41,481 bases of DNA from Paracoccaceae bacterium (GTDB taxonomy: Bacteria > Pseudomonadota > Alphaproteobacteria > Rhodobacterales > Rhodobacteraceae): NCBI GenBank assembly GCA_046589965.1, contig JBKJVF010000232.1:1-41481 (forward strand), read 5' to 3'. The position numbers and the translations under genes are program-made. Position 1 is the first letter of the stretch. Every line of letters begins with the position of its first letter. The notes below the pieces were generated by a model. It did no database searches. It was not told where the DNA came from and saw only the letters and a list, made by a program, of their open reading frames with translations. Below are positions 12,201 through 38,047 of this stretch, piece by piece.

Positions 12201-14683
12201 CAGATCGCCGCCTGCGTCAGGGGCAGCATCCAGCCCGCCACCAATGCGGCAAAGGTGAAGGGTCCCACCAACGAGCGGCGCAGGTTGTCGGTCATCTTCC
12301 ACAGCCCGACCGTTGGCACCCCGCCGCGCTCGGTTTTGCGCGCCCCGAAAATCCAGGGCAGCAATTGCCAGTCGCCGCGCGCCCAACGATGCTGGCGTTT
12401 AACAGCGACATCAACGCGGGCGGGGAAATCCTCGATCACCTCGATGTCCGACGCCAGCGCCGCCCGCGCAAATGTGCCTTCGAAAAGATCATGGCTCAAC
12501 ATCGTGTTGTCGGGCACCCGCCCGTCCATCGCCGCCATGAAGGCGTCAACGTCATAAATGCCCTTGCCCGTAAAGGACCCCTCACCAAAAAGGTCCTGAT
12601 AGACGTCCGATATCGCCGCCGCATATGGCTCGATCCCGCCGGGACTGGAAAAGACGCATTGATAGAGCGATCCCTCCAACCCCACGGGCAGCGCGGGCGT
12701 CACGCGCGGCTGCAAGATACCGTAGCCTTCGGTCACCCGCTGCAGGGCCGGATCGAAGATCGCTGCATTCATCGGATGCGCCATCTTGCCGATCAACGCC
12801 CGAACCGTATCACGCGGCAATCGCGTATCGGCATCCAGCGTGATGACGTATCGCACATCGGCCGGCACGCGGTCATAGCCGGCTTCAAATGTCGTGTCGG
12901 TGGCCCCGCGCAGCAGGCGGTTCAGCTCGTGCAGCTTGCCGCGCTTGCGCTCCCACCCCATCCAGACGCCTTCGGACGGGTTCCACAGCCGCCGACGGTG
13001 CAACAGCAGGAACCTGCTTCCATGCTCCATCGGATAGCGTTGGTTCAGTTGCTCCACCGCTTCGGCAGCGGTGCGGATCAGGCCGGCGTCCTGCGCCAGC
13101 GTCTCGGTGGCGGCGTCCGGGCCATCCGTCAACAGCGCATAATGGACCGCGCCATCGATGCTCGACAGATAATGGACCTCAAGCCGTTCTATCTGTTCCA
13201 GAAGGTCGCGTTCATCCGCCAGAAGGACAGGAACCGCAACCAGCGTCCGCAGGTGTCCCGGCACGCCGCCGGTCAGTTGCATTCCCGGCAAGGGATGCGG
13301 GGCGACCGTGCGCGTGACAATGTCGTTGACCAGAGCAGTCCCAAGGTCAGAAGCGGGGAAAACACCCAGAACCGCCAAAGGCAATATCATCCATAGCGGC
13401 GCGCCGACCAGCCAGAGCGCTGACAGCAAGACCACGAGTGATGCAAACGCGATGATCCCGACATAACTGCCAAGCCCCCAGGCCGCGATGGCGCGAAAGA
13501 GGCGCGACCGAAATCGCGGCACATAGGCAACTGCTGCCTCAAGGGACGCCCGGCCGCGCCCCAAAAGCACATAGCCCGGGTCTTTTTCGCGTGCAGTGGT
13601 GCCTTTCGCGGCCAGCGCCAGCACCGCGTCCACGACGGCCAGTTCATCCGGGAGGCTGCCCGCACCTTTGCCCCGCGCGACCCCGCGGGCCACTTCTTCG
13701 ATGGCCGTGCGGTAACTGTTGCGGGTCGCGAAATCCATCGCGGCAAAGTCGGATCCTTCGAGGAGCCTCGCATCGACCAGACTGACCGCCTCGAAGAACT
13801 CCGCCCAGTCAAGTTCGGAAATGACCCGCATGCTGGTGACGATATTACGCATAGTGACGTTGGACGCGCCCTGTCGCTGCAACGCGCGTTGCACAACCTC
13901 GTCAACATCGGTGCCCTGCCTGCGCAGCCGGTCTTCGAGCCACCCATGAAGCGGGGTTTCGACGGGATCCAGACCACGCAGCCGCCGCGCGAGTTGCCCC
14001 GCGATGATTTCCGGCAGCGGAGCGTTGTCATAGGCAGCAACCGCGATGTGCAACGGCATCGCGGGCCCCGATGTGCCGGTCACCCTGTCCACCAAGGCGT
14101 CAGCCTCGGCCCGCAGCGTTTGCGCTTCAGCAATCTGCACCGCCAAACGGCGCATGTTTTCAATCAGCACGATCCGCAAGGTAATCGCGACCGCCCAGAT
14201 CTCGCCGATCATCAAAGGCGTTCGTCGCTGATAGGCCTGGACGAACCGCGTCAGGACAGGGCCTGAGATCAAGCTGTCGGTATGCGCAACATAGGACCAC
14301 GCGATTGAGAAAACGCGCGGATAGCCAGCAAGATGCCCTTCGTCCAGCTTGGGCAATTGACGGTAAAAGCCAGGCGGCAAATCCTCGGTGATTTGCCGCA
14401 GCTGAAGTTCAACCAGGTGGAAATTGTCCAGCAGCCATTCAGCCGCAGGTGTGACCACCCGCCCACGCTGCAATTCGGCCGCACTCGCACGGTAGGTGGT
14501 CAGCAATATTTGGGCGTTGTGCTTGAGCCGGCGTATCAGGCTCGGCACAGGTGGGGCATTGGGCGTGACCCTCTGCGCATCGGCAAGGGTTTCGGCATGA
14601 TGCTCCAGCCGTTCAGTCCCGAAAAGATCTGCCCGTATTGGCGCTGCGTCGCGCCAGGTCGAAATGGTCTTTGCTGGTCTCAA
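6242..14683 (-). CDS. ndvB: cyclic beta-1,2-glucan synthase (NdvB/ChvB/Cgs; GT84 glycosyltransferase plus GH94 phosphorylase-like C-terminal domain)
   Basis: 2813-aa ORF. Conserved N-terminus APIRADLFGTERLEHHAETLADAQ, several TM blocks, the processive-GT motif QHRWARGDWQLLPW and a long C-terminal glycoside phosphorylase-like region. Size and architecture match the known synthases of about 2.8-2.9 k aa. The only start codon between an in-frame TAG (9 codons upstream) and the conserved N-terminus is TTG at 14683. Confidence 0.97.
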   Translation of the reverse strand: MRPAKTISTWRDAAPIRADLFGTERLEHHAETLADAQRVTPNAPPVPSLIRRLKHNAQILLTTYRASAAELQRGRVVTPAAEWLLDNFHLVELQLRQITEDLPPGFYRQLPKLDEGHLAGYPRVFSIAWSYVAHTDSLISGPVLTRFVQAYQRRTPLMIGEIWAVAITLRIVLIENMRRLAVQIAEAQTLRAEADALVDRVTGTSGPAMPLHIAVAAYDNAPLPEIIAGQLARRLRGLDPVETPLHGWLEDRLRRQGTDVDEVVQRALQRQGASNVTMRNIVTSMRVISELDWAEFFEAVSLVDARLLEGSDFAAMDFATRNSYRTAIEEVARGVARGKGAGSLPDELAVVDAVLALAAKGTTAREKDPGYVLLGRGRASLEAAVAYVPRFRSRLFRAIAAWGLGSYVGIIAFASLVVLLSALWLVGAPLWMILPLAVLGVFPASDLGTALVNDIVTRTVAPHPLPGMQLTGGVPGHLRTLVAVPVLLADERDLLEQIERLEVHYLSSIDGAVHYALLTDGPDAATETLAQDAGLIRTAAEAVEQLNQRYPMEHGSRFLLLHRRRLWNPSEGVWMGWERKRGKLHELNRLLRGATDTTFEAGYDRVPADVRYVITLDADTRLPRDTVRALIGKMAHPMNAAIFDPALQRVTEGYGILQPRVTPALPVGLEGSLYQCVFSSPGGIEPYAAAISDVYQDLFGEGSFTGKGIYDVDAFMAAMDGRVPDNTMLSHDLFEGTFARAALASDIEVIEDFPARVDVAVKRQHRWARGDWQLLPWIFGARKTERGGVPTVGLWKMTDNLRRSLVGPFTFAALVAGWMLPLTQAAIWTLVILAMVSLPRLLGLPHAIVPRRLGLSLRPHFAALGSDTLFALAQVTLSIVFLADQAWRMGDAIGRTVRRLAFTRRHFLEWLTAAQAGASGRPGLVGQYWFMAGGVVLALVSAAVVLVVNPAVWPLVVPFAIIWALAPLVAERISRPQRAKVVDAITPTDLVALRLIARRTWRFFETFVTEKDHFLPPDNFQEIPYPAIAHRTSPTNIGLYLLSVAAAREMGWISEADAIRRLQETLDTMGRMERFRGHLYNWYDTTDLRVLDPAYVSSVDSGNLAGHLIAVAQSCREWAVQTQGDEQLFAGVRDMLALARIELARTEKLASACASCSKALDAIDASLEEPDRDSLLRHAELAHQAVIALVGAGTELGYWTAAMVKRLTESPGAGTSHAGQLAALADTADRFAMEMDFAFMLDPDKELLSIGYSVATNSVDPNCYDLLASEARLASLFAIAKKDVRTRHWFRLGRSATPVGTGAALISWSGSMFEYLMPSLVMRAPAGSVLAQTTRLIVARQQSYGAAHGVPWGISESAYNARDLEMTYQYSNFGVPGLGLKRGLSQNLVIAPYATGLAAMVDPAGAVQNYTRLAAMGAEGRFGFYEAVDFTPARLPEDKDCAIVRSFMAHHQGMTITAIANVALDGLFRTRFHAVPMMQAVDLLLQERVPRDVAVARPRAEEVAIRAADPTDMPRTRRFDAPATALPTGHLLSNGRYGVMVTPTGAGYSRWRDLDVTRWRGDMTVDDLGAFIFLHDPQRRELWSAASGPTGAVPQLHSAVFSEHQASFIAHARTLASVTEVVVSAEDDAEARRVTLNNSGRTAREIDLTSYMELALAPHSADLAHPAFSKMFVVTDFMPELGVLIATRRRRSPSEPEVWAAHIAVVEGDETAPMQHETDRARFIGRGGRLARAAMATEPLSGTTGTVLDPIFSIRRRVLVPPGGMARVTFWTMVADNHVALLDLVDRHRDPSAFERASTLAWTQAQVQLRHLSISNTEAADFQTLAGMILRGDPRLRVHSGRIIAGAGPQSGLWPHSISGDLPIVLMRIDDTTDVGQVRQILAAHEYWRARQLAVDLVILNDRSSSYVQDLQIAIEAAVRTAHSRPRTEGATRTQGVVHVLRADLVTPETRALLLSVARVVLTASRGDISQQLDALPALAPLKLPEPVAMPTEPIAEPDLPELEFWNGTGGFDAGGREYVTVLKRGATTPAPWVNVIANPDFGFVVSAEGAGAVWAGNSRENLLTPWSNDPVTDAPGEAIYLRDLDSGAIWTPTALPMRGKGTYVARHGFGYSRFDYQQGGIASSMVQTVPMDAPLRITRLTLHNRSDRPRRLSVTSYAEWVLGTSRNVSAATVTTERDPETGALMARNPFAMAFPGRVAFADMGSQVHGHTCDRAEVLGTGGSMADPRGLRGEKLSGRVGAGFDPCAAQQRIVTLAPGQRVEVQLLLGQAESIEAARDLISRFRSADLDAVQDQVSAHWGDLLGSVQVKTPDRSMDILLNGWLLYQTLSCRIWARAGFYQASGAYGFRDQLQDGMALTFSRPEMTREHLLRAAGRQFPEGDVQHWWLPHSGQGVRTRISDDRVWLGFGVARYVAVSGDKAILDEMVPFLDGPQVPAGAHDSFFQPGASDQTASVWEHCARGIDQCIELTGANGMPLIGTGDWNDGMNRVGEHGQGTSVWLGWLFIRTVTMLAPLADVRDPARATRWRAHAETVRAAIEANAWDGQWYRRGTFDDGSLLGSATSDECQIDSIAQSWAVLSGAGDPARASQAMAEVGERLIRRDPGLALLFAPPFDRTALDPGYIKGYPPGLRENGGQYSHAAMWVVMAYAMLGQGDKAVDLFVILNPINHALTPDDAARYRGEPYAIAGDVYSTAPHEGRVGWSWYTGAAGWMYRAGIEGIMGLTRAGDHLVIDPTIPKAWAGVSVTVRHRGATVEVVVANPEGSGHGIAKVAINGEAAEHAGGAFNMPFADGVTRVHLTLGAAPPGAITALP

Positions 14684-14880
14684 GCCGACAGGCGCATGGT
14701 CACAGAACTATGGTCCCCGGAACGCGCGTCCCCTGTGGGGCCGGGGGTCGACTTTTCAACAGATTTGGAGCTAGTTTGGTCAATCGGTTCCGGCAAATTG
14801 ACGGCATGTCCGACGCCGTTCGCTGATCGCAACCGTAGCGCCATCTCGTTCCATTTCTTCTCGATGCTTGTCCAGTCCAT
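14680..14880 (-). CDS. small CsbD-like protein / upstream ORF translationally coupled to ndvB (66 aa)
   Basis: ATG at 14880 is preceded by GGAAGGAG with 7-nt spacing. The N-terminus MDWTSIEKKWNEM parallels the CsbD start MNWDTIEGSWKQ at 17775. Its TGA (14682..14680) overlaps the ndvB TTG (14683..14681). Confidence 0.55.
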   Translation of the reverse strand: MDWTSIEKKWNEMALRLRSANGVGHAVNLPEPIDQTSSKSVEKSTPGPTGDARSGDHSSVTMRLSA

Positions 14881-14931
14881 CAGCCACTCCTTCCAAATTT
14901 GGGAGGGGACCTCATCGTCCCGCATCAAACA

Positions 14932-14956
14932 AACGCGATGCATTCACTTTGGTTCC
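14932..14956 (-). promoter_or_regulatory. EcfG-type promoter motif GGAAC-N16-CGTT upstream of the small ORF and ndvB
   Basis: The plus strand reads aacg(14932-14935)-N16-gttcc(14952-14956). It lies 52 nt upstream of the ATG at 14880. Confidence 0.7.
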
Positions 14957-15117: not shown

Positions 15118-15951
15118 TTAGAAACCGTACACCAGCGAAACACCAAGTTTGTTTTCGCTGCGCACCGCACGGCTATCGTTGTATTCCGTGAGGTAGCTCA
15201 CACGGGTAGCAAACGCGTCGGACATCTGAAAATTGACGCCCAGGTCATTGTTGACCCGAAGCGCGGAGTCAGACTTCAAAACGTCGGTGTCCATCGTCGC
15301 GAAGATCGTGTCGTTGAACTTGTGATAGAACCGCGAAGACGCGATGTATCCGATCTCGGTGTCGTTGCCGCCAGCGCCGTTCTCAAGATAGCTGGCACCG
15401 ACGCCAGCCTGCAGGCGCCAGGTCGTCTGGGGCGTATTGATGACCCGGTAGCCCGGACCAAAACCGAGGAAACCGTCGGTCGCAGTCTCGGTCGCCAGCG
15501 TCGCCAAGCCATCTGTCACAACACGGCCAAGGGCGAACCCGTAGAAATTCTCGGAAAAGTAGTAGTTCGCGTCATAGACGCCGAACACGCTTTCCTCGGA
15601 TTTCACGCCGTCAGTTTCGGAAAACTCAAGGATCATGCCGATCGTCTGGACAAAGGGTCCGGACGCATGACGAATGCGAGCGCCGAGTGTGAAGTCGCTG
15701 CTATCCGATGCACCTGAAGTACCGGAATAGCCAAGCGATGCCGACCCCGACAACCCTTCGCGATACTCCGGACTGCCAAAGCGGTACTCGTCGTTTGCGC
15801 GCTCGATGTCGATGCGGGCCTGGCGCTCGATGTCGTTGATTTCATCATTCACATCACGAATGCCGGTCAATGTCGTCTGTGCCGTCGCCGTGGCCCCCGC
15901 GATCATCAAAGCGATCATCGAGATGCCTGCCAAATGTAGTGTTTTTTTCAT
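15118..15951 (-). CDS. DUF481 family outer-membrane beta-barrel protein (YdiY-like)
   Basis: Signal peptide MKKTLHLAGISMIALMIAGATATAQ. Alternating beta-strand pattern with a C-terminal ..LGVSLVYGF. AAAGGA SD. Confidence 0.8.
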   Translation of the reverse strand: MKKTLHLAGISMIALMIAGATATAQTTLTGIRDVNDEINDIERQARIDIERANDEYRFGSPEYREGLSGSASLGYSGTSGASDSSDFTLGARIRHASGPFVQTIGMILEFSETDGVKSEESVFGVYDANYYFSENFYGFALGRVVTDGLATLATETATDGFLGFGPGYRVINTPQTTWRLQAGVGASYLENGAGGNDTEIGYIASSRFYHKFNDTIFATMDTDVLKSDSALRVNNDLGVNFQMSDAFATRVSYLTEYNDSRAVRSENKLGVSLVYGF

Positions 15952-16001: not shown

Positions 16002-16026
16002 AACCGCCAGCTCGCCATTAAGTTCC
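16002..16026 (-). promoter_or_regulatory. near-consensus EcfG-type motif GGAAC-N16-GGTT upstream of the DUF481 gene
   Basis: The plus strand reads aacc(16002-16005)-N16-gttcc(16022-16026), about 50 nt upstream of the ATG at 15951. Confidence 0.5.
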
Positions 16027-16163: not shown

Positions 16164-16188
16164 GGAACCGTTCGCGGCGAAATCAGTT
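16164..16188 (+). promoter_or_regulatory. near-consensus EcfG-type motif GGAAC-N16-AGTT upstream of the two-domain PRC-barrel gene
   Basis: GGAAC(16164-16168)-N16-AGTT(16185-16188), about 50 nt upstream of the ATG at 16239. Confidence 0.45.
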
Positions 16189-16238: not shown

Positions 16239-17129
16239 ATGAAAAAACTAATGCTGACAACTGCGGTTCTGACCGCAATGACCCTGCCCGCCATGGCGCA
16301 GGACGGCGTTTTCCGTAACGAGATTACTGCTGGTGCTGTGCGGGCCTCCGACTTGATCGGCGCGCGCATCTATGCGTCCGAGGCTGCGATTGACGCCGAC
16401 GAATATGCAGGCGTCCAGGAAGGCTGGGACGACATCGGCGAGATCAATGATGTGATCATTACGCGTGAAGGCAACATCGAGGCGGTTCTGGTCGATATCG
16501 GTGGGTTCCTTGGTATGGGTGAGCGGCAAGTCGCCGTCGACATGGCTGCATTGCGCTTCGTCTCGGACGGCGCGACCGCGGATAATGCGGACGACTGGTT
16601 CGTGGTCATGAATGCGGACCGTACGATCCTCGAAGGTGCACCCGAATGGTCGATGACTGCGTCTGACATGAACGCGACCGCGACGACCAACACCGAAGCG
16701 GCAACCAATGACGCAGCGGTGACCACGGCCGAACAGACCGACCAGGCCGCCGCGACGGTCGATCCCGAGGCACCTGCCGCGGCCAATGATGGCGCGATGG
16801 CTGATGGCGCGGCCGGCAACGGCCTTGTCCGTGACGGTTACACCAGCCTGGCTGGCACCGACCTGACCGCCGACATGCTGAAAGGCGCGACCGTTTATGA
16901 CGCCGAAGATGCGAATGTCGGCGAAGTCGGCGAGTTGATCCTGAGCGAGGACGGTCAGGTTGAACAGATGGTGATCGACGTAGGTGGCTTTCTCGGCATG
17001 GGCGAAAAGCCTGTCGCCTTGGCGCTCGACCAGGTGGAGATCCTGCGTCAGAACGACGGCAACGACGTCCGCGTTTACGTGTCGCTGTCGAAAGACGAAC
17101 TTGAAGCGATGCCCGACTACAAAATGTGA
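16239..17129 (+). CDS. PRC-barrel domain protein (two PRC barrels, secreted)
   Basis: Start chosen at MKKLMLTTAVLTAMTLPAMAQ (GGAG 7 nt upstream). Two repeats of the ..VLVDIGGFLGMGERQVAV.. / ..MVIDVGGFLGMGEKPVAL.. motif are separated by an Ala/Thr/Asp-rich linker. Confidence 0.85.
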   Translation: MKKLMLTTAVLTAMTLPAMAQDGVFRNEITAGAVRASDLIGARIYASEAAIDADEYAGVQEGWDDIGEINDVIITREGNIEAVLVDIGGFLGMGERQVAVDMAALRFVSDGATADNADDWFVVMNADRTILEGAPEWSMTASDMNATATTNTEAATNDAAVTTAEQTDQAAATVDPEAPAAANDGAMADGAAGNGLVRDGYTSLAGTDLTADMLKGATVYDAEDANVGEVGELILSEDGQVEQMVIDVGGFLGMGEKPVALALDQVEILRQNDGNDVRVYVSLSKDELEAMPDYKM

Positions 17130-17266: not shown

Positions 17267-17440
17267 TCAGAGCGGCGGACGTCCCCGCATCGCCCGGGCA
17301 ATCATCGCGACCACAAACAGCACGATGAACACAAAGAACAGGATTTGCGCGATTCCGGCAGACGTACCGGCTATGCCGCCAAAGCCGAGTGCGGCGGCGA
17401 TAAGCGCGATGACGAGAAAGGTCAGTGCCCAGCCCAACAT
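17267..17440 (-). CDS. DUF1328 (UPF0391) small membrane protein
   Basis: Start chosen at [25 protein letters not shown], the family hallmark, with GAGGAG SD upstream. Confidence 0.85.
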
Positions 17441-17485: not shown

Positions 17486-17511
17486 AACGCCACAGCCTTA
17501 AGGGTGGTTCC
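17486..17511 (-). promoter_or_regulatory. EcfG-type promoter motif GGAAC-N17-CGTT upstream of the DUF1328 gene
   Basis: The plus strand reads aacg(17486-17489)-N17-gttcc(17507-17511). Confidence 0.7.
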
Positions 17512-17577: not shown

Positions 17578-17775
17578 TCAGAGGCCACGATACCAGTTGT
17601 CGACTTCCTGCTCGGCGACGTCACGGGTATGGCCATATTTCTTCTGCAACAGACCGACTATCTCATCGCGGCGGCCTTTGATGCTGCTCCACTCGTCGCC
17701 GGTAATGTCGCCCCATTTCGATTGTGCGCGACCGGCAATTTGCTTCCAGCTGCCTTCAATAGTGTCCCAATTCAT
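17578..17775 (-). CDS. csbD: CsbD family general stress protein
   Basis: MNWDTIEGSWKQIAGRAQSKWGDITGDEWSSIKGRRDEIVGLLQKKYGHTRDVAEQEV matches the CsbD family. GGAAAGGA SD. The longer ORF-track start is rejected. Confidence 0.9.
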   Translation of the reverse strand: MNWDTIEGSWKQIAGRAQSKWGDITGDEWSSIKGRRDEIVGLLQKKYGHTRDVAEQEVDNWYRGL

Positions 17776-17811: not shown

Positions 17812-17836
17812 AACGCGCGCGCGCAGAAAAGGTTCC
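17812..17836 (-). promoter_or_regulatory. EcfG-type promoter motif GGAAC-N16-CGTT upstream of csbD
   Basis: The plus strand reads aacg(17812-17815)-N16-gttcc(17832-17836), just after the kinase stop codon. Confidence 0.75.
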
Positions 17837-17851: not shown

Positions 17852-19621
17852 TCAGGCCGCTGAAGCATCCGCATCCAATGCGTCATGGGACGAAAGCAGG
17901 GGGAAATCGATGCGGACGAAATAGCTGCCGTCACGCTCTCCGACATTCAGGGTGCCTGACAATTGCGTGGCAAACGCCGACAGAAGCTGTTGGCCCAACC
18001 CTGTGTTGTCGGGGTCGGGCGACAGGGTCGGTCTGCGGCTTTCCGACATCGTGTTGACCACTTCCAGCGCGGCGCGGCCTGCCCCTGCCTCGTGGAACGA
18101 AACGGTCAGCAGGGTCTTTTGGTTTGCATTCTGACCCGAATGTTTCAGGGCATTGGTCAGGGCCTCGGTCAATATCAGCGACAGGGGCACCGCCTGATCG
18201 GGCGTCATCCGGATCCGGTCAAAGCTGGTCTTTGTCTCGATTTGACGGTCGTCCGATGCGCCCCCGCGCACCACCTGTGCCACGATGGTCTGCAACAGCT
18301 CATCCGCCAGCACATCCGTCAGCCCACTGGTCTGGTAAAGTTCGCGGTGCACGATCGCCAGACTCATGACCCGATCATGGAGCCCTTTCAGCAATTGCCG
18401 GGCCTCTGGCGCCACGGATTTGCGCATCTGCAGGTTCATGATCGAGGCGATAAGCTGCAGGTTGTTTTTGACCCGGTGATGAACCTCGCGCAGGAGCACC
18501 TCTTTTTGGTGCAACGAGTTTTCCAGTTCGGCCTCGTCATGCATGACCGACGACATCATCCGCTCATAAGCCTTGCCGACATCACGCAGTTCATTGGGTG
18601 CCAGGCTCAGATCCGGTGGCTTGACGATGCGGCTGCCGTCCGCAAATGCGATGATGGACGCGCGCAAGGCCCGAACATGGCGCAGCACCTGATATTCCGC
18701 CGTCAACCACGCCACCAGCAAACTCGCCAACCACATGGCAAAGGGAAAGACCCATAACGGCACCAATCCAGCCAGCGGCGAACTCGACGCGACGACTGCG
18801 GGCCAGGATGCAAGGACGTACAAGGTCCCGGGAACGATCGGAACCACAGTAAAGGTCCTCCGGTCTCCCAACGGCGTACTGGCCATGAAAGTTGCGGGCG
18901 GCTTATCCACAAATTCCACCAGCGGCATGCCCACGGGAAGCCTTTCGCCAATGGTCTCGATCCCGTAGATCGTCGTCAACACCGTGCCTTCGCCGTCAAA
19001 GGTGATCAGTGCCAACGGTTCAGACAGCTCCAGTTCTTTTTGCATCAAGCTGGGGGATGGATGCTCCAGCACCCTGTGCGGCAGTGACAAGGACACGTAA
19101 CCCAAAACCTCGCCCCCTTCGTCAAAGACCGGATGCGAAAAAATCAGCACGGACTCGCCGCTAACGGGCCCCTTGGGATTAACCTTCATCATAGGTTTGG
19201 GGTCTGCGTTCAATTTTACCAGGGCGGGGTTAAGGCCAAAGTCAAGCGCAACTCCTATGGAGGCGCAGGTTGTTTTTCCATCAGGTTGAATGAAGCCGGC
19301 AAAGCTGATCAAGGGTTCGCTTGCCACCAGCCCCCGCATGACTTCCACGCATGCCGCGCTGTCGTCGATGATGGGACGCACCGTCGTCGCCGTTGCCGCC
19401 GCAAGGCCTTTTGCAAGGTTTATCGCGGCAATTTGCGGCGTCGCTGCCAGAAGTGTTTCCCCAAAAAGCGCGGTTTGCCACCGCGCCTGCGCCTCCGATT
19501 CAAATTTTTCCGTCTGGAAAAAGGCCAGCAGCGCCAGGGGAGTAAGCGCAAGTGCCACGGCCGCCAACAATCGCACGCCAAGCCGACCGAAAAGTTGGCC
19601 GCGCAACGCGCGAGTGATCAT
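17852..19621 (-). CDS. HisKA_2/HWE-type sensor histidine kinase (PhyK-like GSR kinase)
   Basis: 589 aa. N-terminal TM, a periplasmic segment of about 250 aa and a second TM. H-box HHRVKNNLQLIASIMNLQ and a C-terminal ATPase region (LTEALTNALKHS, GLGQQLL). The start overlaps the ecfG stop (ATGA). Confidence 0.88.
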   Translation of the reverse strand: MITRALRGQLFGRLGVRLLAAVALALTPLALLAFFQTEKFESEAQARWQTALFGETLLAATPQIAAINLAKGLAAATATTVRPIIDDSAACVEVMRGLVASEPLISFAGFIQPDGKTTCASIGVALDFGLNPALVKLNADPKPMMKVNPKGPVSGESVLIFSHPVFDEGGEVLGYVSLSLPHRVLEHPSPSLMQKELELSEPLALITFDGEGTVLTTIYGIETIGERLPVGMPLVEFVDKPPATFMASTPLGDRRTFTVVPIVPGTLYVLASWPAVVASSSPLAGLVPLWVFPFAMWLASLLVAWLTAEYQVLRHVRALRASIIAFADGSRIVKPPDLSLAPNELRDVGKAYERMMSSVMHDEAELENSLHQKEVLLREVHHRVKNNLQLIASIMNLQMRKSVAPEARQLLKGLHDRVMSLAIVHRELYQTSGLTDVLADELLQTIVAQVVRGGASDDRQIETKTSFDRIRMTPDQAVPLSLILTEALTNALKHSGQNANQKTLLTVSFHEAGAGRAALEVVNTMSESRRPTLSPDPDNTGLGQQLLSAFATQLSGTLNVGERDGSYFVRIDFPLLSSHDALDADASAA

Positions 19622-25821: not shown

Positions 25822-25827
25822 AATAAA

Positions 25828-30536: not shown

Positions 30537-30788
30537 ATGGGGATTATCTGGACACTCATCATCGGCTTTGTCGCCGGTGTGATCGCAAAATTCGTGACAC
30601 CGGGGGACGACGAACCATCAGGCTTCGTGCTGACCACCATTCTTGGCATCATTGGCGCCATTATCGCCTCGTACCTTGGTCAAAGCCTTGGGTGGTATGA
30701 CGCGGGCGAAGGCGCTGGCGTGATCGGCGCCGCCATCGGTGCGATCATTGTCCTTTTCGTCTGGGGCTTCGTGCGTCGCCGCGCGTGA
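30537..30788 (+). CDS. GlsB/YeaQ/YmgE family stress-response membrane protein
   Basis: MGIIWTLIIGFVAGVIAKFVTPG...ILGIIGAIIASYLG matches the family. AAGGAA SD. Confidence 0.9.
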   Translation: MGIIWTLIIGFVAGVIAKFVTPGDDEPSGFVLTTILGIIGAIIASYLGQSLGWYDAGEGAGVIGAAIGAIIVLFVWGFVRRRA

Positions 30789-30819
30789 CCCCGACCCGAC
30801 AGGCGAAAGGACGTCAATC

Positions 30820-31332
30820 ATGTCAATGGCTTCACCTTCATTGCTGGCGCTGCTTGGGCTCGTTGCATTTGCCGGTTTCCAAAACAGAAGTCGGATCAGC
30901 GACATGCTGGCCGACGCGCGGGAAAGCACGCGTGCCGATGCCCCAGCAGTCCCACTCGGCCCAAGTCTCGAAAGCCGTGAGGACCCGGGCGCCGCAGGCG
31001 GGTTCCTGCCGGACATCGTGCGCGTGTTCCAGGGCGGTTCGACGGGCGGTGCCTTGTCCGGCGGACTGGGCGATCTTGTGGCGCGCTTCAAATCGTCGGG
31101 CTGGGGCAGAAGCGTGAACAGTTGGGTCGAAACGGGGCCGAACCTCCCGATGGAGGCCAGCGATCTTCGAAGCGTGATTGGCGATGAGACGTTAGAAGAG
31201 TTAAGCGTCAGGACCGGCATGTCACCGGAACAACTGCTGTTGCGCTTGAACTTCGCATTGCCACAGGTTGTGGACCAGTTGACGCCCGCGGGCCGTATCC
31301 CGACGCAGGTCGAGGCGTTGTCCATGATCTAG
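30820..31332 (+). CDS. YidB/DUF937 family protein
   Basis: The C-terminal LEELSVRTGMSPEQLLLRLNFALPQVVDQLTPAGRIP resembles DUF937. GAAAGGA SD. Confidence 0.75.
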   Translation: MSMASPSLLALLGLVAFAGFQNRSRISDMLADARESTRADAPAVPLGPSLESREDPGAAGGFLPDIVRVFQGGSTGGALSGGLGDLVARFKSSGWGRSVNSWVETGPNLPMEASDLRSVIGDETLEELSVRTGMSPEQLLLRLNFALPQVVDQLTPAGRIPTQVEALSMI

Positions 31333-31462
31333 CTTGGCGCTGCGACCGGGCGGCGTCGATCCGCCATGAGCCTTCTCAAAATGCGGAAGCGGTCCCCATC
31401 TTTGAAATATTCCGGCGCGACGTTCTGCGCCATATGTCCCCTCGATAGCTAGGAAATACAAC

Positions 31463-32617
31463 ATGACCAATCACTTCGCTCTTGGCATGAGCAAGGCGAC
31501 TGCCTTGACCAGGGCTGGCAAACTCGTCGAGGCAACCGTCCTAATTCAGTCCTTGATGACCGACACTCCACCTGCGGAGGACGATACGGTGATCGAGGGA
31601 ACTTTCACGCGACTGAAAGATGGCGAACCACAGGATGTCGCCGAGCCCGTAAAAGCACCCCGCGCGGCCAAGTCGCCGCCAAAGCGATCAACTTTGAAGG
31701 AAACGCTGCGCAAGATTGGCGCGGGCGGCATGCCGGACCATGGGCTGACAGCACATCGCCAACCACACGTCCCCGCCAATGCGAGCTTTGAGTCACATAC
31801 CCACTCCGCCAAAGCGGGTCGACGGGATTACAAGCTCTATATTCCGGCATCACGACCGGCATCGAAGATGCCCCTTATCGTCATGTTGCATGGCTGCACG
31901 CAGTCACCTGACGATTTTGCGGTCGGAACCGGCATGAACGCGCTGGCAGAAGAGCACGGGTTTGTCGTGGCATATCCGGGCCAACCGACTGGTGCCAATG
32001 CCAACAAATGCTGGAACTGGTTCAAGCCGGATGATCAGGCGCGCGCGCAGGGCGAGCCCGCATTGATCGCAGGCATCGTGCAGGACATCCTGGCCGATCA
32101 TCCGGTCGATCCGGCACGGGTGTTTGTGGCCGGTCTGTCTGCTGGCGGTGCAGCGGCGGCAATCGTCGCGTCCGCATATCCCGACGTCTTCAGCGCGGCT
32201 GGCATTCATTCGGGTCTGCCGGTGGGCGCAGCGACCGACATCCCCCAGGCGTTTGCCGCAATGCGCAATGGCGCGGTCGGTGCGTCGATTGCGCATCCGG
32301 TCCCGACCATCGTCATCCACGGGCTTGCCGATACCACGGTCAACCCAAGCAACGGCAAAGCGGCCCTTGCCCAGGCGCTTGATGCCTTCGGCCCGCTGAA
32401 ATCCAGCACACGCAAGGGTCAGTCCTCGGGGGGCAGATCGTACCGCCAGACCACCTATTCGCGTCCGGATGGGACAGCAGTGGGGGAACATTGGGAAATC
32501 GCTGCGGCTGGTCATGCTTGGGCAGGTGGATCATCCGAAGGCAGCTTTACGGACCCCACCGGCCCGTCAGCCTCCGCAGAAATGGTGCGCTTTTTCATGC
32601 AGCAAAAGCAGTCTTAA
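31463..32617 (+). CDS. PHB depolymerase family esterase (LpqC-like)
   Basis: YKLYIPAS...PLIVMLHGCTQSPDDFAVGTGMNALAEEHGFVVAYPGQ...NKCWNWF and GLSAGGAAA (nucleophile elbow). Confidence 0.85.
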   Translation: MTNHFALGMSKATALTRAGKLVEATVLIQSLMTDTPPAEDDTVIEGTFTRLKDGEPQDVAEPVKAPRAAKSPPKRSTLKETLRKIGAGGMPDHGLTAHRQPHVPANASFESHTHSAKAGRRDYKLYIPASRPASKMPLIVMLHGCTQSPDDFAVGTGMNALAEEHGFVVAYPGQPTGANANKCWNWFKPDDQARAQGEPALIAGIVQDILADHPVDPARVFVAGLSAGGAAAAIVASAYPDVFSAAGIHSGLPVGAATDIPQAFAAMRNGAVGASIAHPVPTIVIHGLADTTVNPSNGKAALAQALDAFGPLKSSTRKGQSSGGRSYRQTTYSRPDGTAVGEHWEIAAAGHAWAGGSSEGSFTDPTGPSASAEMVRFFMQQKQS

Positions 32618-32707: not shown

Positions 32708-32733
32708 GGAACCGCGTCGGCGTGACTGGCGTT
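32708..32733 (+). promoter_or_regulatory. EcfG-type promoter motif GGAAC-N17-CGTT upstream of the osmoprotectant ABC operon
   Basis: GGAAC(32708-32712)-N17-CGTT(32730-32733), 55 nt before the ATG at 32788. Confidence 0.75.
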
Positions 32734-32787: not shown

Positions 32788-33708
32788 ATGTTCAGCCAGT
32801 ATTATCGTCGCACGGTCCTTGGCATGGTGGCCGCCGTCTCGCTGAGTGCCAGCGCGCTTGCACAAGACGCGGTGCGCGTGTCGTCCAAACTCGACGCCGA
32901 GGGGGGACTGCTTGGCAGCATGATCATCCAGGTGCTGGAAGCCAACGGAATCACGACCGAAAACAAATTGCAGCTGGGCGCGACCAAAATCGTGCGCGAG
33001 GCGTTGGTCGCGGGTGAAATCGACATCTACCCGGAATACACCGGCAATGCGGGGTTCTTTTTCAGCAATGATACCGACCCTGCCTGGAAGGACGCAGGAC
33101 AGGCAGCCGCGATGGCCGCCGAACTTGACCTTGCCAACAACATTGTCTGGTTGAAACCGGCACCCGCCAACAACACCTGGGCAATCGCTTTGCGCAAGGA
33201 TCTGGCCGACAGCAATCAATTGGCATCCATGGAAGACCTGAGCGCCTACATCCTTGAAGGTGGCGATTTCAAACTTGCCGCCTCGGCCGAGTTTGTGGAA
33301 AGCCCAGCCGCCCTGCCGGCCTTTCAGTCGGCTTACGGGTTTATGCTGGCGGCTGACCAGATGCTTGTCCTGGCAGGTGGCGACACGTCCGCGACCATCC
33401 GTGCGGCGGCCGAAGGTACGTCGGGCGTCAACGCCGCGATGGTTTACGGCACCGACGGTGCCATCGCCGCGCTGAATTTGGTCGTCATGACCGACAGCAA
33501 GGGTGCGCAGGCGGTCTATGAACCGGCACCGACCATCCGTGCAGAGGTGCTGGAGGCCTACCCGCAGATCAGGGACCTGCTTGACCCCGTCTTTGCCACA
33601 CTCGATGCCGCCACCTTGCAGGGGCTGAACGCCAAAATTCAGGTCGAGGGTCAGGATTACAGCGCGGTCGCAACTGAATATCTGACCGCCGAAGAGTTCC
33701 TGAAGTAG
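32788..33708 (+). CDS. osmoprotectant (glycine betaine-type) ABC substrate-binding protein, OsmF/YehZ-like
   Basis: Signal peptide followed by VRVSSKLDAEGGLLGSMIIQVLEANG...GEIDIYPEYTGN. 306 aa, comparable to YehZ. AAGGAA SD. Confidence 0.85.
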   Translation: MFSQYYRRTVLGMVAAVSLSASALAQDAVRVSSKLDAEGGLLGSMIIQVLEANGITTENKLQLGATKIVREALVAGEIDIYPEYTGNAGFFFSNDTDPAWKDAGQAAAMAAELDLANNIVWLKPAPANNTWAIALRKDLADSNQLASMEDLSAYILEGGDFKLAASAEFVESPAALPAFQSAYGFMLAADQMLVLAGGDTSATIRAAAEGTSGVNAAMVYGTDGAIAALNLVVMTDSKGAQAVYEPAPTIRAEVLEAYPQIRDLLDPVFATLDAATLQGLNAKIQVEGQDYSAVATEYLTAEEFLK

Positions 33709-33770
33709 GTCGCGGGACCATCCGACTTCCCGATCAGGGGGGTCCCTGCCCTTTCCTGAAAGTCCGCGCA

Positions 33771-34925
33771 TTGATCAAGAATCGTCCACTTTTGTTGCAG
33801 GTTGCGTTGGTCATTTTTGGCGCGGTGGCGTTACCGTTTCTGACGCATGCACCCAACAGGCTGATCTCGGGCCAGCCAGTGCCATTCTGGCTGGTCCCGG
33901 ATGCTTTGGCATGGGTGCTGATGGCGCCTGCGCTATTGCTGGTGGTCGCTGTGACGTTGGAGCTGACCACCGGCCTTGCCCGAGGTTTAGGACTGGTGAC
34001 CGTCTTGTTCATTGCGGGTCTGGTGCATGCGGCGGCGGTCGGTGCAGACGACCTCGCGCTAACAGCGTCGTCTGATGCGGCACGCACGTCTTTCGGTTCT
34101 GGTTTTTGGGTGATGGCGCTGGCCGCAGCCCTGATGTTGGCAGATCTGACCGCGCGCGCCGGCCTGTCACCTTTTGCTCGGGTTCTTGCAGGGCTTTTGG
34201 CGGTGACGCCGATTGGGGTCATGATCTTCAGTGGCCATCTGAATGCGATGTCGATCATGGTGGAATATGCCAACAAGGCGGACCTTTTCCAGCAGGCCGT
34301 CGGACAGCATTTGGTGATCGTGCTGGCCGCCATGGTGCCGACGCTGCTTATTGGCGTTCCGCTCGGCGTGCTTGCCCATCGCAGGGCGGGGCTGGGTGGA
34401 CCAATCCTGTCAGTCCTGAACATCATTCAGACGATCCCGTCGATCGCGATGTTCGGCCTTTTGTTGGCACCGCTGTCGGCTCTTGCCGTGGCGGTCCCAT
34501 CTCTGCAGGCCCTTGGCATCAGCGGCATCGGCCTGGCCCCTGCGATCATTGCGCTGACGCTCTATTCGATCTTGCCGATTGTCCGCAACACGTCCGAGGG
34601 GCTGGCAGATGTGCCCCGTGGTGTGATCGACGCCGCAGAAGGCATGGGCATGACGCGCCGCCAGCTTTTCTGGCGCATCGAAGTTCCCTTGTCGTTGCCG
34701 ATCTTTCTGTCTGGGCTGCGGATCACCGTGGTGCAGGCCATCGGTCTGACCGCGGTGGCCGCACTGATTGGCGCCGGGGGCCTTGGCGCAATCATGTTCC
34801 AGGGTCTGTTTTCAAACGCCTTGGACCTCGTGTTGCTGGGCGCGCTGCCCATCATCGCCATCGCCGTCCTGGCGGATGCACTGTTCAAACTGGCGCTGGC
34901 CCTCTCGCAAAGGCGCATCCAATGA
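33771..34925 (+). CDS. osmoprotectant ABC permease, YehY-like (long form, 384 aa)
   Basis: Multi-TM protein. The binding-protein-dependent permease core has LNIIQTIPSIAMFGLL and GMTRRQLFWRIEVPL. The TTG start from the ORF track is uncertain. Confidence 0.8.
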   Translation: MIKNRPLLLQVALVIFGAVALPFLTHAPNRLISGQPVPFWLVPDALAWVLMAPALLLVVAVTLELTTGLARGLGLVTVLFIAGLVHAAAVGADDLALTASSDAARTSFGSGFWVMALAAALMLADLTARAGLSPFARVLAGLLAVTPIGVMIFSGHLNAMSIMVEYANKADLFQQAVGQHLVIVLAAMVPTLLIGVPLGVLAHRRAGLGGPILSVLNIIQTIPSIAMFGLLLAPLSALAVAVPSLQALGISGIGLAPAIIALTLYSILPIVRNTSEGLADVPRGVIDAAEGMGMTRRQLFWRIEVPLSLPIFLSGLRITVVQAIGLTAVAALIGAGGLGAIMFQGLFSNALDLVLLGALPIIAIAVLADALFKLALALSQRRIQ

Positions 34926-35848
34926 TCGATTTCTTCGATGTCTCCAAGTCCTTCGGCCCGAATACAGTCGTCAGCGGCCTGACCCTGTCGATAAAGAAGG
35001 GCGAGTTTTGCGTGCTGATCGGTCCATCAGGGTCCGGCAAATCCACCATTCTCAAGATGATCAACCGGTTGGAAGAACACAGTTCTGGCGAAATTCACTT
35101 CGCTGGAGAGCCCGTTCGTTCTTTTGCCCCGGAAATTCTGCGCCGCCGGATCGGCTATGCCATCCAGTCGGTTGGCCTTTTCCCCCACTGGAGCGTGGCC
35201 GACAACATCGCCACCGTGCCCCGGCTGTTGCACTGGGACCCGGCGCGCATCGCCACGCGTACGACAGAACTTTTGCAGATGCTGAATCTGGATGCGACGC
35301 GCATCCGCGATGCCTATCCACATCAGTTGTCCGGTGGCCAGCAGCAGCGCGTGGGTGTCGCACGCGCATTGGCGGCCGATCCGGATGTCCTTTTGATGGA
35401 TGAACCCTTCGGCGCACTCGACCCCATCACCCGCGACAGTCTGCAAGCCGAGATGGTCCGCATTCATGCCCAGACCGGCAAGACCATCGTCTTTGTGACC
35501 CATGACATGGACGAGTCCTTGCGCCTTGCGACCCGCGTCGTGGTGCTGGACAAAGGCTTGGTCGTGCAATCGGCCAGTCCGCGAGACCTTCTGGACAAGC
35601 CTGCGGATGACTTCGTGCGCGCCTTCCTTGGAAAAGACGACTACGGCTTGAAGCTCTTGTCGGTAGAGCAGGTCCATGAGCGGATGCGCCCGCTCGTCAT
35701 TCCGTGCGGCCCAGACACGGTGGTGCCTGACGACAGTCTGCGTCTGGCCCTGTCGCGGATGGTGGGGGCAAAAAACAACCGCATCGCGGTGGTCGGCCCA
35801 ACGGGCGCGCAGGTTGGAACCGTTTTTCTTGACGATCTTGCGTCATGA
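34922..35848 (+). CDS. osmoprotectant ABC ATP-binding protein, YehX-like
   Basis: Start at [11 protein letters not shown] (ATGA overlap with the permease). Walker [10 protein letters not shown], signature LSGGQQQR and Walker [12 protein letters not shown]. The 5' part of ORF 34106-35848 is rejected. Confidence 0.9.
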
Positions 35849-36615
35849 CGGGCGTAGCTTTGCGCGCCCCCTTTCGAACCACACCAGTTGCGCGCTTTGC
35901 AGTCGGGTTGGCGGTCTATCTGGTCTTCGTTTTCGCCCTGCCCTACAGCGCGCCCGTTTTTTCTGCACTTTTCCCGGAACTTGAACGGCCAATCTACGAA
36001 CAGCAAAGCTTTGTGACGCTGGTGTGGGCACATCTTGCGCTTGTGGCGGGTGCAAGCGTCATCGCGACGGTGATCGGCATCGGCGCGGGGATCTACGTCA
36101 CGCGGCCACAGGGTCGCGAATTTCGTCGCATGGTGGAAACGCTGTCGGCCATGGGACAGACCTTTCCGCCCGTGGCTGTGCTTGCGCTGACCGTTCCCGT
36201 GATCGGATTTGGATTTTGGCCAGCACTGGTTGCCTTGTCACTCTACGGCATCCTGCCGATCTGCGAGAACACCATCTCCGGCCTTGAAGCGGTTTCACCC
36301 GCCGCACGCGAAGCTGCCGAGGGCCTAGGGATGAGCCGTGGACAGCAGCTATTTCAGGTGGAACTGCCCCTTGCCGCACCGATCCTGATCGCCGGCATTC
36401 GAACCTCGGTGACCATCAACATCGGCACTGCTGCAATCGCATCGACGGTCGGTGCGGTATCGCTGGGGTCACCCATCATCATCGGCCTGAACGGCAGCAA
36501 CACAGCCTACGTTCTGCAAGGTGCGTTGCTGGTTGCAGGTCTGGCCATTGTGGTGGACCTCGGGTTCAGCGTGGTCGCGGCAAAAGTCGCCCGCTGGCGG
36601 CAAGCATCGAGCTGA
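35845..36615 (+). CDS. osmoprotectant ABC permease, YehW-like
   Basis: 256 aa with TM helices. [18 protein letters not shown] is the permease EAA-type loop. ATGA overlap with the ATPase. Confidence 0.85.
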
Positions 36616-36707: not shown

Positions 36708-36733
36708 GGAACGAACGGCGCTTACCATGCGTT
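36708..36733 (+). promoter_or_regulatory. EcfG-type promoter motif GGAAC-N17-CGTT upstream of the YihY/BrkB gene
   Basis: GGAAC(36708-36712)-N17-CGTT(36730-36733). Confidence 0.7.
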
Positions 36734-36814: not shown

Positions 36815-37663
36815 GTGATTTCACTCTCCAGCATCACGCAGATCGTCAGACCGGTTTATGCCGAAATGGACCGAAAAAACTTCAGCCTGATCGCGGCTGG
36901 GGTTGGACTGTTCGGCATGATCGCGCTGTTTCCGGCACTGGCGGCCATCGTCATGTTGTGGAGCCTTTTTGCCGATCCCTCGGACGCCGGTGCGCTTGTG
37001 GCGCTCGGTGCCAATACATTGCCGCCCGATGTGTCGAAGGTCATGTCCGATCAGATCGAACGCGTGATTGCGGCGGGGTCTGACCAAAGTTTCGGATGGG
37101 CACTGCTGCTGACTCTAGCACTTTCGCTATGGTCGGCGCGGGCTGGCGTGGCAGCCTTGATGCGGGGCCTTAATGCCGTGCATGACACGCAGCCAAGGCC
37201 AAGCTGGTTTGCGGAAACACTCGCATCCCTGACGCTGACAGTTGTGTTAAGCGGGTTGGCACTGGTCCAGATCGCGGCGATGGTCATCGCGCCGATCGTG
37301 ATGGCCGTCATCCCGCTTGGGACCGGGGCGGAGATTGCGGCGGATGCTGTGCGGTGGCTTTTGACCACGGCAGTGGCGATCCTGGCCCTTGGCGCTGTCT
37401 ATCGCTACGGCCCCAATTTGCCCGATCCCAAACCCGCCTGGATCACACCGGGTGCGATCCTGGCGGTCGTCTTGCTGCTGCTGATGTCGATTGCCTTTTC
37501 CGTGTATCTGGCCCGGTTCGGCAACTACAACAAGGTCTATGGATCGATCGGTGCGGCAGTGGCCTTGCTGATCTGGTTTTATCTTTCGGCACTGGTGGTT
37601 TTGCTGGGCGGGGCGCTCAATGCCGAACTGGTCCGACGTGGCATGCTGCCGTTTAAATCATGA
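36815..37663 (+). CDS. YihY/virulence factor BrkB family membrane protein
   Basis: GTG start 5 nt after GAAAGGAAA. LIAAGVGLFGMIALFPALAA, SLWSARAGVAALMRGLN and YGSIGAAVALLIWFYLSALVVLLGGALN resemble the family. Confidence 0.8.
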   Translation: MISLSSITQIVRPVYAEMDRKNFSLIAAGVGLFGMIALFPALAAIVMLWSLFADPSDAGALVALGANTLPPDVSKVMSDQIERVIAAGSDQSFGWALLLTLALSLWSARAGVAALMRGLNAVHDTQPRPSWFAETLASLTLTVVLSGLALVQIAAMVIAPIVMAVIPLGTGAEIAADAVRWLLTTAVAILALGAVYRYGPNLPDPKPAWITPGAILAVVLLLLMSIAFSVYLARFGNYNKVYGSIGAAVALLIWFYLSALVVLLGGALNAELVRRGMLPFKS

Positions 37664-37762: not shown

Positions 37763-37787
37763 GGAACAAACCCGACGTATTTTTGTT
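37763..37787 (+). promoter_or_regulatory. near-consensus EcfG-type motif GGAAC-N16-TGTT upstream of the KGG gene
   Basis: GGAAC(37763-37767)-N16-TGTT(37784-37787), 49 nt before the ATG at 37836. Confidence 0.5.
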
Positions 37788-37835: not shown

Positions 37836-37997
37836 ATGAACAAGACAAAATCTGACGGCAAAGCGACAAAAGGCAGCTCAAACTTCAAGGATGATCCGGC
37901 GCGCGCTGCAGAAGCCGGTCGCAAGGGCGGCCAAAGCTCAGGGGCCGACACCAAAGGCGACAAGGGTGCCAAAACGCAATCGGCAGGCCGCAAATAG
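37836..37997 (+). CDS. KGG-repeat general stress protein (YciG/GsiB-like, 53 aa)
   Basis: Not in the ORF track because it is shorter than 60 aa. Sequence: MNKTKSDGKATKGSSNFKDDPARAAEAGRKGGQSSGADTKGDKGAKTQSAGRK. AAEAGRKGGQ is the KGG motif. GGAG lies 7 nt upstream and a strong terminator follows. Confidence 0.8.
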   Translation: MNKTKSDGKATKGSSNFKDDPARAAEAGRKGGQSSGADTKGDKGAKTQSAGRK

Positions 37998-38012
37998 CCA
38001 AGTAGTTGATTG

Positions 38013-38047
38013 GCGCAGAACCCACACCGTGGGTTCTGCGCTTTTTC
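38013..38047 (+). terminator. Rho-independent terminator after the KGG gene
   Basis: GCGCAGAACCCA-caccg-TGGGTTCTGCGC followed by TTTTT. Confidence 0.85.

Follow-up and report, generated by a model that had tools for sequence, protein, structure and literature searches.

Why does a locus encoding the PhyR-NepR-EcfG general stress switch carry so many copies of the promoter motif that its own sigma factor is expected to recognize? The question is raised by a 41,481-nucleotide stretch of DNA from a Paracoccaceae bacterium (assembly GCA_046589965.1, contig JBKJVF010000232.1, positions 1 to 41,481; hereafter the window), in which an earlier note made from the sequence alone had described an unusually dense island of EcfG-type promoter motifs at 14680-38047. 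Our analysis indicates that the switch locus very probably sits inside a contiguous, conserved block made up of the genes it controls directly, about 20 units headed by EcfG-type promoters. The presence, statistics and positions of the motifs, the identities of the genes and the recurrence of the motif ahead of orthologous genes were established directly.

EcfG-type promoter motifs are concentrated around phyR

An exact search of both strands of the window for GGAAC-N16/17-CGTT (the strict pattern) and GGAAC-N16/17-NGTT (the relaxed pattern) returned 14 strict sites, to which the relaxed pattern added eight more, giving 22 in all. The motif agrees with the published promoter consensus of sigma-EcfG/SigT, GGAAC-N15-17-CGTT, as given in the methods of the GsrN report (PMC5869019), an identification that the earlier note had already made. 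All 13 strict coordinates in that note were recovered exactly, as were its six NGTT variants, but both lists were incomplete: a fourteenth strict site at 25545-25569 (minus strand) and the relaxed sites 38343 and 40728 (both minus strand) had been overlooked. Its estimates of chance, less than one strict site and two to three relaxed ones in the window, proved sound. Dinucleotide-preserving shuffles gave a strict expectation of 0.79 with a maximum of 3, first-order Markov simulation gave 0.84, and the same simulation predicted 2.35 strict and relaxed sites together, compared with the 22 seen.

Scanning spacers of 8-27 nt across the window, we found eight sites with N16 and six with N17, while any other length yielded zero to two. 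Sites with exactly one mismatch numbered 26; the mismatch in the eight intergenic ones always fell on the C of CGTT, and the other 18 were intragenic. By region, a single strict site occurred in 1-14679, 13 occurred in 14680-38047 and none occurred rightward of 38047. The spacer scan, the one-mismatch sites and this regional distribution argue against a compositional artefact. The extent proposed earlier, 14680-38047, is indeed where strict sites are dense, but the cluster is wider and spans approximately 6.2-40.8 kb, from the cyclic-glucan synthase operon on the left to the glycosyltransferase-glf operon on the right.

The sites are also placed as promoters would be. Non-coding DNA makes up 14% of the window and holds 21 of the 22 sites; after start-codon refinement, 19 lie 33-81 nt (mostly 33-54 nt) 5′ of a start codon that has a ribosome-binding site (RBS) ahead of it. 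The claim that all but three sites point at a nearby start codon stands for these 19, with 25797, 6167 and 25545 as the actual exceptions. Where two small RNA (sRNA)-like units and an orphan had been proposed, 25797 does precede a predicted sRNA, but 17812 and 37763 precede short protein genes (csbD and KGG, respectively). The spacer sequences between the boxes are unrelated among sites. The extended consensus of the block's promoters is gGGAACC-N15/16-GCGTT, some with NGTT variants of the -10 element.

The regulators share a composite promoter

The switch genes and the promoter between them are the following.

17852-19621, minus strand: PhyK-like HWE/HisKA_2 sensor histidine kinase, the last gene of the nepR-ecfG-kinase operon
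19618-20196, minus strand: EcfG, a sigma factor of the extracytoplasmic function (ECF) type (Pfam Sigma70_r2 and r4_2), its start overlapping the nepR stop
20193-20381, minus strand: anti-sigma factor NepR, 62 amino acids (aa) from ATG 20381 (Pfam NepR, 4.4e-14)
20422-20454, both strands: 33-bp composite of two overlapping, opposed strict EcfG promoters, 20422-20447 (plus) for phyR and 20429-20454 (minus) for nepR-ecfG-kinase
20487-21296, plus strand: PhyR anti-anti-sigma response regulator, divergent from nepR (NCBIfam PhyR family, 337.5 bits, cut-off 240)

Pfam and NCBIfam thereby confirmed phyR, nepR, ecfG and a HWE/HisKA_2 kinase in the canonical layout, as the earlier note had named them. 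PhyR combines a sigma-like N-terminal part (Pfam PhyR_sigma2, 3e-23; PhyR_sigma-like, 2.5e-13) with a C-terminal Response_reg domain (2.8e-13); in a set of species-representative genomes, its best relatives reach no more than 85% identity and all belong to the Rhodobacterales, most of them to the Paracoccaceae, so that the source is an unsampled member of this family. EcfG matches the NCBIfam equivalog PRK12546 with 271.8 bits (cut-off 270). The kinase carries Pfam HisKA_2 (1.2e-21), HWE_HK (8.6e-08) and HATPase_c domains and aligns end to end with the NCBIfam PhyK model at 203 bits, under the equivalog cut-off. The nepR gene lies directly upstream of ecfG, overlapping its start, and its own start codon follows an RBS 47 nt downstream of the motif.

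We compared these promoters across 80 Paracoccaceae phyR loci (L001-L080; ±10 kb, 1.39 Mb in total, 44 of them full-length), scoring an orthologue as positive when a strict motif lay within 200 nt upstream. Strict motifs preceded 70 of 75 nepR and 70 of 78 phyR orthologues, and all 78 phyR orthologues had at least the relaxed form. The composite is a near-palindrome, and its 7-nt offset is identical in 65 of the 81 loci comprising the family set and the window. It recalls the palindromic EcfG site considered in work on Erythrobacter (bioRxiv 10.1101/641647). The motif on the nepR-ecfG operon is as expected of an autoregulated ECF sigma factor, and its absence upstream of the kinase (0 of 76 orthologues) fits an operon-internal position.

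Motif density exceeds the background and that of other orders

As background we used a related replicon (the 1.58-Mb Pseudorhodobacter turbinis replicon) and unrelated metagenomic DNA. Four 50-kb P. turbinis windows far from phyR contained 1, 0, 2 and 1 strict sites, so that the comparison with random windows suggested earlier gives 0-2 sites per 50 kb in a related genome against 14 in our window. Approximately two of those four sites in 200 kb look promoter-like, which equals the chance rate, compared to approximately 20 promoters in the block. The unrelated metagenomic DNA held 3 strict sites in 882 kb.

Other orders also differ from the window. Within ±20 kb of phyR, Methylobacterium bullatum has six strict sites, five of them within approximately 1.1 kb of the gene, and Sphingomonas parapaucimobilis has none. 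Sinorhizobium meliloti has three within ±20 kb of its phyR homologue rsiB1, flanked by genes of haem and sugar metabolism, whereas the window presents approximately 20 contiguous target promoters. The Caulobacter SigT regulon is scattered over the whole chromosome, from CC_0163 to CC_3477 (PMC3073932, Table 1), whereas here the targets are contiguous with the regulators. Within the Rhodobacterales, by comparison, the 40 kb at phyR contain 10 strict sites on Gemmobacter fulvus p2 and 7 on D. shibae pDSHI02. The clustering is unusual, as had been claimed, relative to the background and to other orders, but within Paracoccaceae it is so only in degree.

The clustering is conserved in Paracoccaceae

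The 80 family loci contain 500 strict motifs (0.36 per kb), 261 with N16 and 239 with N17, compared to approximately 12 at other spacings. Bases outside the search pattern are strongly skewed as well, with C following GGAAC in 80-84% of sites and G preceding CGTT in 75-83%. Full-length ±10 kb loci have 2-11 strict sites (median 7). For the same span of the window, the counts are 11 (strict) and 16 (relaxed), and just one locus ties on either, placing the window at the top of the family distribution. Farther than +4 kb from phyR, motif density across the 80 loci is down to approximately 0.01-0.1 per kb.

Gene order and promoter positions in L001-L011 match the window, and the proteins of the closest relatives are 60-98% identical. 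The order shared with these relatives runs PRC-barrel, DUF1328, csbD, kinase-ecfG-nepR, phyR, Crp, the 306-aa/Holin-X/apolipoprotein-like/DUF2383 group, sRNA, DUF892, AI-2E and PRC-like, and the synteny check that the earlier note had proposed accordingly found the block collinear, with promoters at the same positions. Moreover, L001-L011 have strict sites where the window has the NGTT sites 16164 and 21304, the latter right after phyR, which validates the relaxed class. In more distant genera, these modules recur around phyR in altered order. The window has extra modules at both ends, namely cgs, DUF481, GalU-like, the OsmF operon, BrkB, KGG, DUF378 and glf. With genes and promoter positions recurring in this way, the island is a trait of the family and not peculiar to this genome.

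Divergent promoter pairs are a further shared feature. Besides the phyR/nepR composites, approximately 55 such pairs occur in the family loci and the window, with -35 elements less than 100 nt apart and most commonly 30-39 nt; those of the window are 25735/25797 and 28706/28764, the second of which is also present in L001 and L002. At the low end of the distribution, the ±10 kb around phyR in L032 (Cereibacter johrii) and in L020, L021 and L041 (Sinirhodobacter) contain only 2-3 strict motifs, essentially the autoregulatory pair; the Cereibacter johrii locus has 3 in 20.8 kb compared to 11 in the equivalent span of the window.

Predicted target units

To the left of phyR, the predicted units begin with a large glucan synthase operon.

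6242-14683, minus strand: cyclic beta-1,2-glucan synthase (Cgs/NdvB type), 2813 aa (Pfam GH94 supersandwich, 4e-147)
14932-14956, minus strand: strict motif before a 66-aa open reading frame (ORF; 14680-14880, minus strand) and the cyclic beta-1,2-glucan synthase gene
16002-16026, minus strand: relaxed motif (GGTT) of the DUF481 outer-membrane protein gene 15118-15951, ATG 50 nt downstream
16164-16188, plus strand: relaxed motif (AGTT) of the secreted PRC-barrel protein gene 16239-17129 (Pfam PRC, 7.8e-16)
17486-17511, minus strand: strict motif of the DUF1328 small membrane protein gene 17267-17440
17812-17836, minus strand: strict motif of csbD, 17578-17775, start 36 nt downstream (Pfam CsbD, 2e-16)

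The 66-aa ORF starts at ATG 14880 behind a GGAAGGAG RBS, 51 nt downstream of the 14932 motif, and its TGA stop codon shares bases with the cgs start, TTG (TTGA), an arrangement that suggests translational coupling of the two. Further Pfam matches in the Cgs product are the GH94 catalytic domain (4.5e-111), GT2 and glucoamylase. The DUF481 gene (Pfam DUF481, 2e-33) is followed by a terminator at 15068-15047, and another at 17550-17522 closes the csbD unit. Strict motifs precede the orthologues of PRC-barrel in 17 of 19 loci, of DUF1328 in 51 of 58 and of csbD in 42 of 44. Left of cgs, between it and an ABC transporter gene, lies 3.5 kb of low-GC DNA (2730-6240; 57%) without convincing genes, which includes, at 3800-4078 (plus strand), a weakly matching remnant of the C-terminal part of an IS1380-type DDE transposase (Pfam E = 0.014) and looks like decayed mobile DNA.

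To the right of phyR, the features are as follows.

21304-21329, plus strand: relaxed motif (TGTT) of a 134-aa hypothetical gene, 21379-21783
23198-23223, minus strand: strict motif of the PNPOx-like general stress protein gene 22659-23150 (Pfam Pyrid_ox_like, 5.7e-31)
25545-25569, minus strand: strict motif inside the DUF2383 coding sequence, absent at the same position in L001 and L002
25735-25759, minus strand: strict motif of the DUF2383 gene 25236-25697
25982-26007, plus strand: relaxed motif (TGTT) of the DUF892 (YciE/YciF-like) gene 26060-26596 (Pfam DUF892, 1.9e-51)
28706-28730, minus strand: strict motif of the AI-2E family transporter gene 26663-28672, ATG 28672 33 nt downstream
28764-28788, plus strand: strict motif of the 98-aa PRC-like protein gene 28836-29132, divergent partner of 28706
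30239-30264, minus strand: relaxed motif (TGTT) of the GalU-like UTP-glucose-1-phosphate uridylyltransferase gene 29279-30199
30537-32617, plus strand: motif-free genes for Transglycosylase-associated (YmgE-like), YidB-like and PHB-depolymerase-type esterase proteins (Pfam)
32708-32733, plus strand: strict motif of the osmF-yehYXW-type glycine betaine ABC transporter operon 32788-36615
36708-36733, plus strand: strict motif of the BrkB/YihY family membrane protein gene 36815-37663 (Pfam Virul_fac_BrkB, 1.7e-54)
37763-37787, plus strand: relaxed motif (TGTT) of the 53-aa KGG-repeat stress protein gene 37836-37997 (Pfam KGG, 4.4e-07)
38343-38367, minus strand: relaxed motif (GGTT) of the DUF378 gene 38090-38311, interrupted by an in-frame TGA
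40728-40752, minus strand: relaxed motif (GGTT) of the TuaH-like glycosyltransferase gene 39491-40678 and the UDP-galactopyranose mutase gene glf, 38356-39498

Transcription from 21304 possibly continues by readthrough into the Crp/Fnr regulator gene (21882-22616), whose orthologues have no motif of their own (0 of 44). The 25735 unit probably extends through the apolipoprotein-like gene (24601-25164), Holin-X (24173-24604) and a 306-aa protein gene (23278-24198): strict motifs precede 13 of 17 DUF2383 orthologues, and their absence at Holin-X (0 of 18) and the 306-aa gene (0 of 28) fits operon-internal genes. The strict site within DUF2383, 25545, is probably the single chance occurrence expected.

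The AI-2E transporter was identified with Pfam AI-2E_transport (3.8e-47). The GalU-like protein matches Pfam NTP_transferase and NCBIfam galU (209 bits, below the cut-off), and its gene is followed by a terminator at 29174-29146. This enzyme would supply UDP-glucose, the substrate of Cgs, and both genes lie under predicted EcfG promoters. OsmF scores 442.7 bits with NCBIfam (cut-off 400) and is followed by permease, ATPase and permease genes. The E. coli counterpart of this operon is RpoS-dependent; on that basis, its position under an EcfG motif would represent convergent placement under a general-stress sigma factor.

The BrkB gene starts at GTG 36815 with a GAAAGGAA RBS, 81 nt downstream of its motif; a metagenome scan anchored on BrkB found only relatives of at most 37% identity, which were of no use for synteny but supplied the unrelated metagenomic DNA of the background comparison. 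In the DUF378 gene, the TGA at 38255-38257 replaces the conserved Trp of the family (GGxNW), and substituting Trp raises a Pfam DUF378 match of 82 bits; either the gene is a pseudogene with a nonsense mutation, or the codon stems from an error in sequencing. At the right end, glf (Pfam GLF, 1.6e-77) and the glycosyltransferase gene (NCBIfam TuaH, 4e-13, below the cut-off) are assigned to the 40728 promoter, the weakest of our assignments.

A GsrN-like small RNA is predicted within the block

Two strict motifs precede structured, ORF-free DNA.

6167-6191, minus strand: strict motif lying 50 nt past the 3′ end of cgs; the approximately 120 nt that come next (6160-6040) form a C-rich, structured unit with no ORF
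25797-25821, plus strand: strict motif of the sRNA gene, its -35 GGAACC and -10 GCGTT invariant in nine aligned genomes
25827-25949, plus strand: predicted GsrN-like, EcfG-dependent sRNA of approximately 123 nt between the DUF2383 and DUF892 genes, with no ORF

The predicted RNA at 25827 combines a closing stem on its 5′ side with C-rich loops and an intrinsic terminator (25915-25941) followed by eight T, and its fold is more stable than those of shuffled sequences (z = -5.4). In the predicted consensus fold, UUCCCCC occupies the loop of stem 1, and five pairs of this stem show compensatory change. The RNA and its promoter are kept in L001, L002, L004-L006, L008, L010 and L011, with a truncated copy in L009; covariance-model matches of 102-123 bits were confined to the closest clade. 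At gathering thresholds, Rfam had no match anywhere in the window. Assignment to RF00519 (suhB/mmgR, alpha-r8) was rejected: the score was 30 bits (E approximately 1e-4) against a gathering threshold of 41, the conserved UUUCCUCCCU segment was gapped in the alignment and most of the score came from the terminator.

In the portion of the GsrN report drawn on here (PMC5869019), GsrN is described with an EcfG promoter, exposed C-rich loops and a Rho-independent terminator, all of which recur in the predicted RNA, and its homologues are said to be "typically proximal" to the stress-response locus; the RNA at 25827 lies 4.5 kb from phyR. On these modelled features, 25827-25949 fits the description published for GsrN-like EcfG-dependent sRNAs in both position and structure. 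The likeness is one of position and structure, not of demonstrated sequence homology, and the RNA is clade-specific, Rhodobacterales not being among the lineages named in that portion of the report. The 6167 unit (fold z = -4.1) has the GUUCCCUC motif in common with the 25827 sRNA, and a search of the 80 family loci gave no homologue of it; the unit may represent another sRNA or an element associated with the 3′-UTR, either assignment being uncertain.

Proposed mechanism and alternative explanations

We infer that EcfG uses these sites and that the units respond to stress. Under the established family model, stress-activated HWE/HisKA_2 kinases would phosphorylate PhyR, phosphorylated PhyR would capture NepR and the freed EcfG would bring RNA polymerase to the promoters of the block, while boosting its own operon and phyR via the 33-bp overlapping composite. 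The targets, as predicted from their gene families, are mainly proteins of envelope and osmotic protection (cyclic beta-1,2-glucan synthase, the GalU-like enzyme, the OsmF-type transporter, AI-2E, BrkB and the DUF481 protein) and small general-stress proteins (CsbD, KGG, DUF1328, DUF378, DUF892, DUF2383, PNPOx-like and PRC-barrel), plus one GsrN-like sRNA.

Several points weigh against this interpretation. Because -35 elements of this kind also serve other ECF sigma factors, the motifs could be read by a paralogous one whose gene lies elsewhere. Within the window, strict site 25545 is intragenic and 6167 has no identifiable product, and neither the three genes at 30.5-32.6 kb within the block nor Crp has an upstream site with at most one mismatch. 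Among homologues, BrkB had a motif in 0 of 4 cases, and those of BrkB, OsmF, KGG, DUF378, cgs and glf were missing from the fetched family loci. Finally, in R. sphaeroides, the sole studied relative, the phyR mutant had a membrane-stress phenotype only, with no broad sensitivity (PMC5830050).

A recently acquired mobile stress island, in which motif density would follow from co-transfer of a self-contained module, is an unlikely alternative to a long-standing target block, although several features are compatible with it. GC content is 57-61% over 14-38 kb compared to 63-65% in cgs and the left flank, approximately 4-5 points lower, but many short genes and intergenic regions account for part of this difference. 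The IS1380-type transposase remnant (approximately 3.8-4.1 kb) lies outside the block. A tRNA scan of the window found none, no integrase was among the Pfam matches, and there is no direct repeat or replication gene in or beside the block. In several Rhodobacterales, plasmids or chromids do carry phyR with its stress neighbours (D. shibae pDSHI02, R. litoralis, Gemmobacter fulvus p2, Ketogulonicigenium and the 1.58-Mb P. turbinis replicon), and in more distant genera the modules are shuffled around phyR; nevertheless, a search with 17-30 kb of the window found no near-identical DNA in the plasmid collection. The closest relatives (60-98% protein identity) have their genes and promoters in collinear positions, a sign that the block has been inherited vertically in this clade.

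That another ECF sigma factor reads the motifs, or that an EcfG paralogue from elsewhere in the genome does, so that the block would not be the regulon of the adjacent EcfG, we regard as quite improbable. GGAAC-type -35 and CGT-type -10 elements are widespread in ECF groups. Many Alphaproteobacteria have several EcfG paralogues (PMC3892343, PMC4814048), and the narrow R. sphaeroides phenotype (PMC5830050) would fit such a reader. Conversely, the same motif stands at the nepR-ecfG operon and at phyR in nearly all 80 relatives, a hallmark of ECF autoregulation. Moreover, the motif equals the experimental SigT/EcfG consensus (bioRxiv 10.1101/641647, PMC5869019), and the gene families are those of known EcfG regulons, for example Transglycosylase-associated and CsbD (PMC3073932 Table 1, PMC7083833).

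A sequence artefact without promoter function, whether chance, a repeat element or compositional bias, has next to no probability and is effectively refuted: some sites are palindromic (6167, GGAACCAGTTGGTTCC; also the phyR/nepR composite), but the spacer sequences are unrelated, enrichment is limited to 16/17-nt spacing, dinucleotide-preserving shuffles never reached the observed count, and the sites are tied to start codons and conserved among orthologues where the surrounding DNA has diverged.

Discussion

The locus is of an expected, known type and reveals no new mechanism. The general stress genes that depend on RpoS in E. coli and on SigB in B. subtilis include osmF-yehYXW, yciE/F/G, ymgE, csbD and ydaG, which are dispersed in those genomes. 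The families shared with these regulons are OsmF-type, DUF892 (YciE/F), KGG (YciG), Transglycosylase-associated (YmgE), CsbD and PNPOx-like (YdaG/GSP26), but the sigma factor is different, that of the window belonging to ECF group 15. With the PhyR-NepR-sigma-EcfG systems of M. extorquens (PhyR), S. meliloti (RpoE2/RsiA1/RsiB1) and C. crescentus (SigT/NepR/PhyR/PhyK), the window has in common the same four regulators, the divergent layout, the consensus, autoregulation and the kinds of targets. The Rhodobacter (Cereibacter) sphaeroides locus RSP_1271-RSP_1274, from the same bacterial family, together with the Crp/Fnr gene downstream has the same order (kinase, ecfG, nepR-like, divergent phyR and Crp/Fnr), and its study describes neither a regulon nor a promoter motif (PMC5830050). 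In the literature, we found no prior account of such clustering, or of a Rhodobacterales EcfG regulon, beyond this locus paper.

For the Rhodobacterales, in which the EcfG regulon has so far been undefined and the lone genetic study yielded an unexpectedly weak phyR phenotype, the window offers a compact, almost complete predicted map of the promoters and transcription units of the general stress response. Clustering varies from 2 to 11 strict sites (±10 kb) and is least in Cereibacter and Sinirhodobacter. This scarcity may be related to the weak R. sphaeroides phenotype, and the variation suggests a testable reason for the lesser role of PhyR there. New candidate EcfG targets are the cyclic glucan synthase with the GalU-like enzyme, the OsmF-type betaine transporter and the clade-specific GsrN-like sRNA.

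More tentatively, it is conceivable, if rather doubtful, that Paracoccaceae and roseobacters have consolidated the direct EcfG regulon into one conserved, internally shuffling super-locus, built largely of bidirectional promoter pairs and holding at least one third of the genuine EcfG promoters of the genome, a reading to which the P. turbinis counts away from phyR lend rough support. If so, the super-locus would constitute a portable, self-regulating general-stress module, located on chromids or plasmids in several genera, instead of a scattered regulon.

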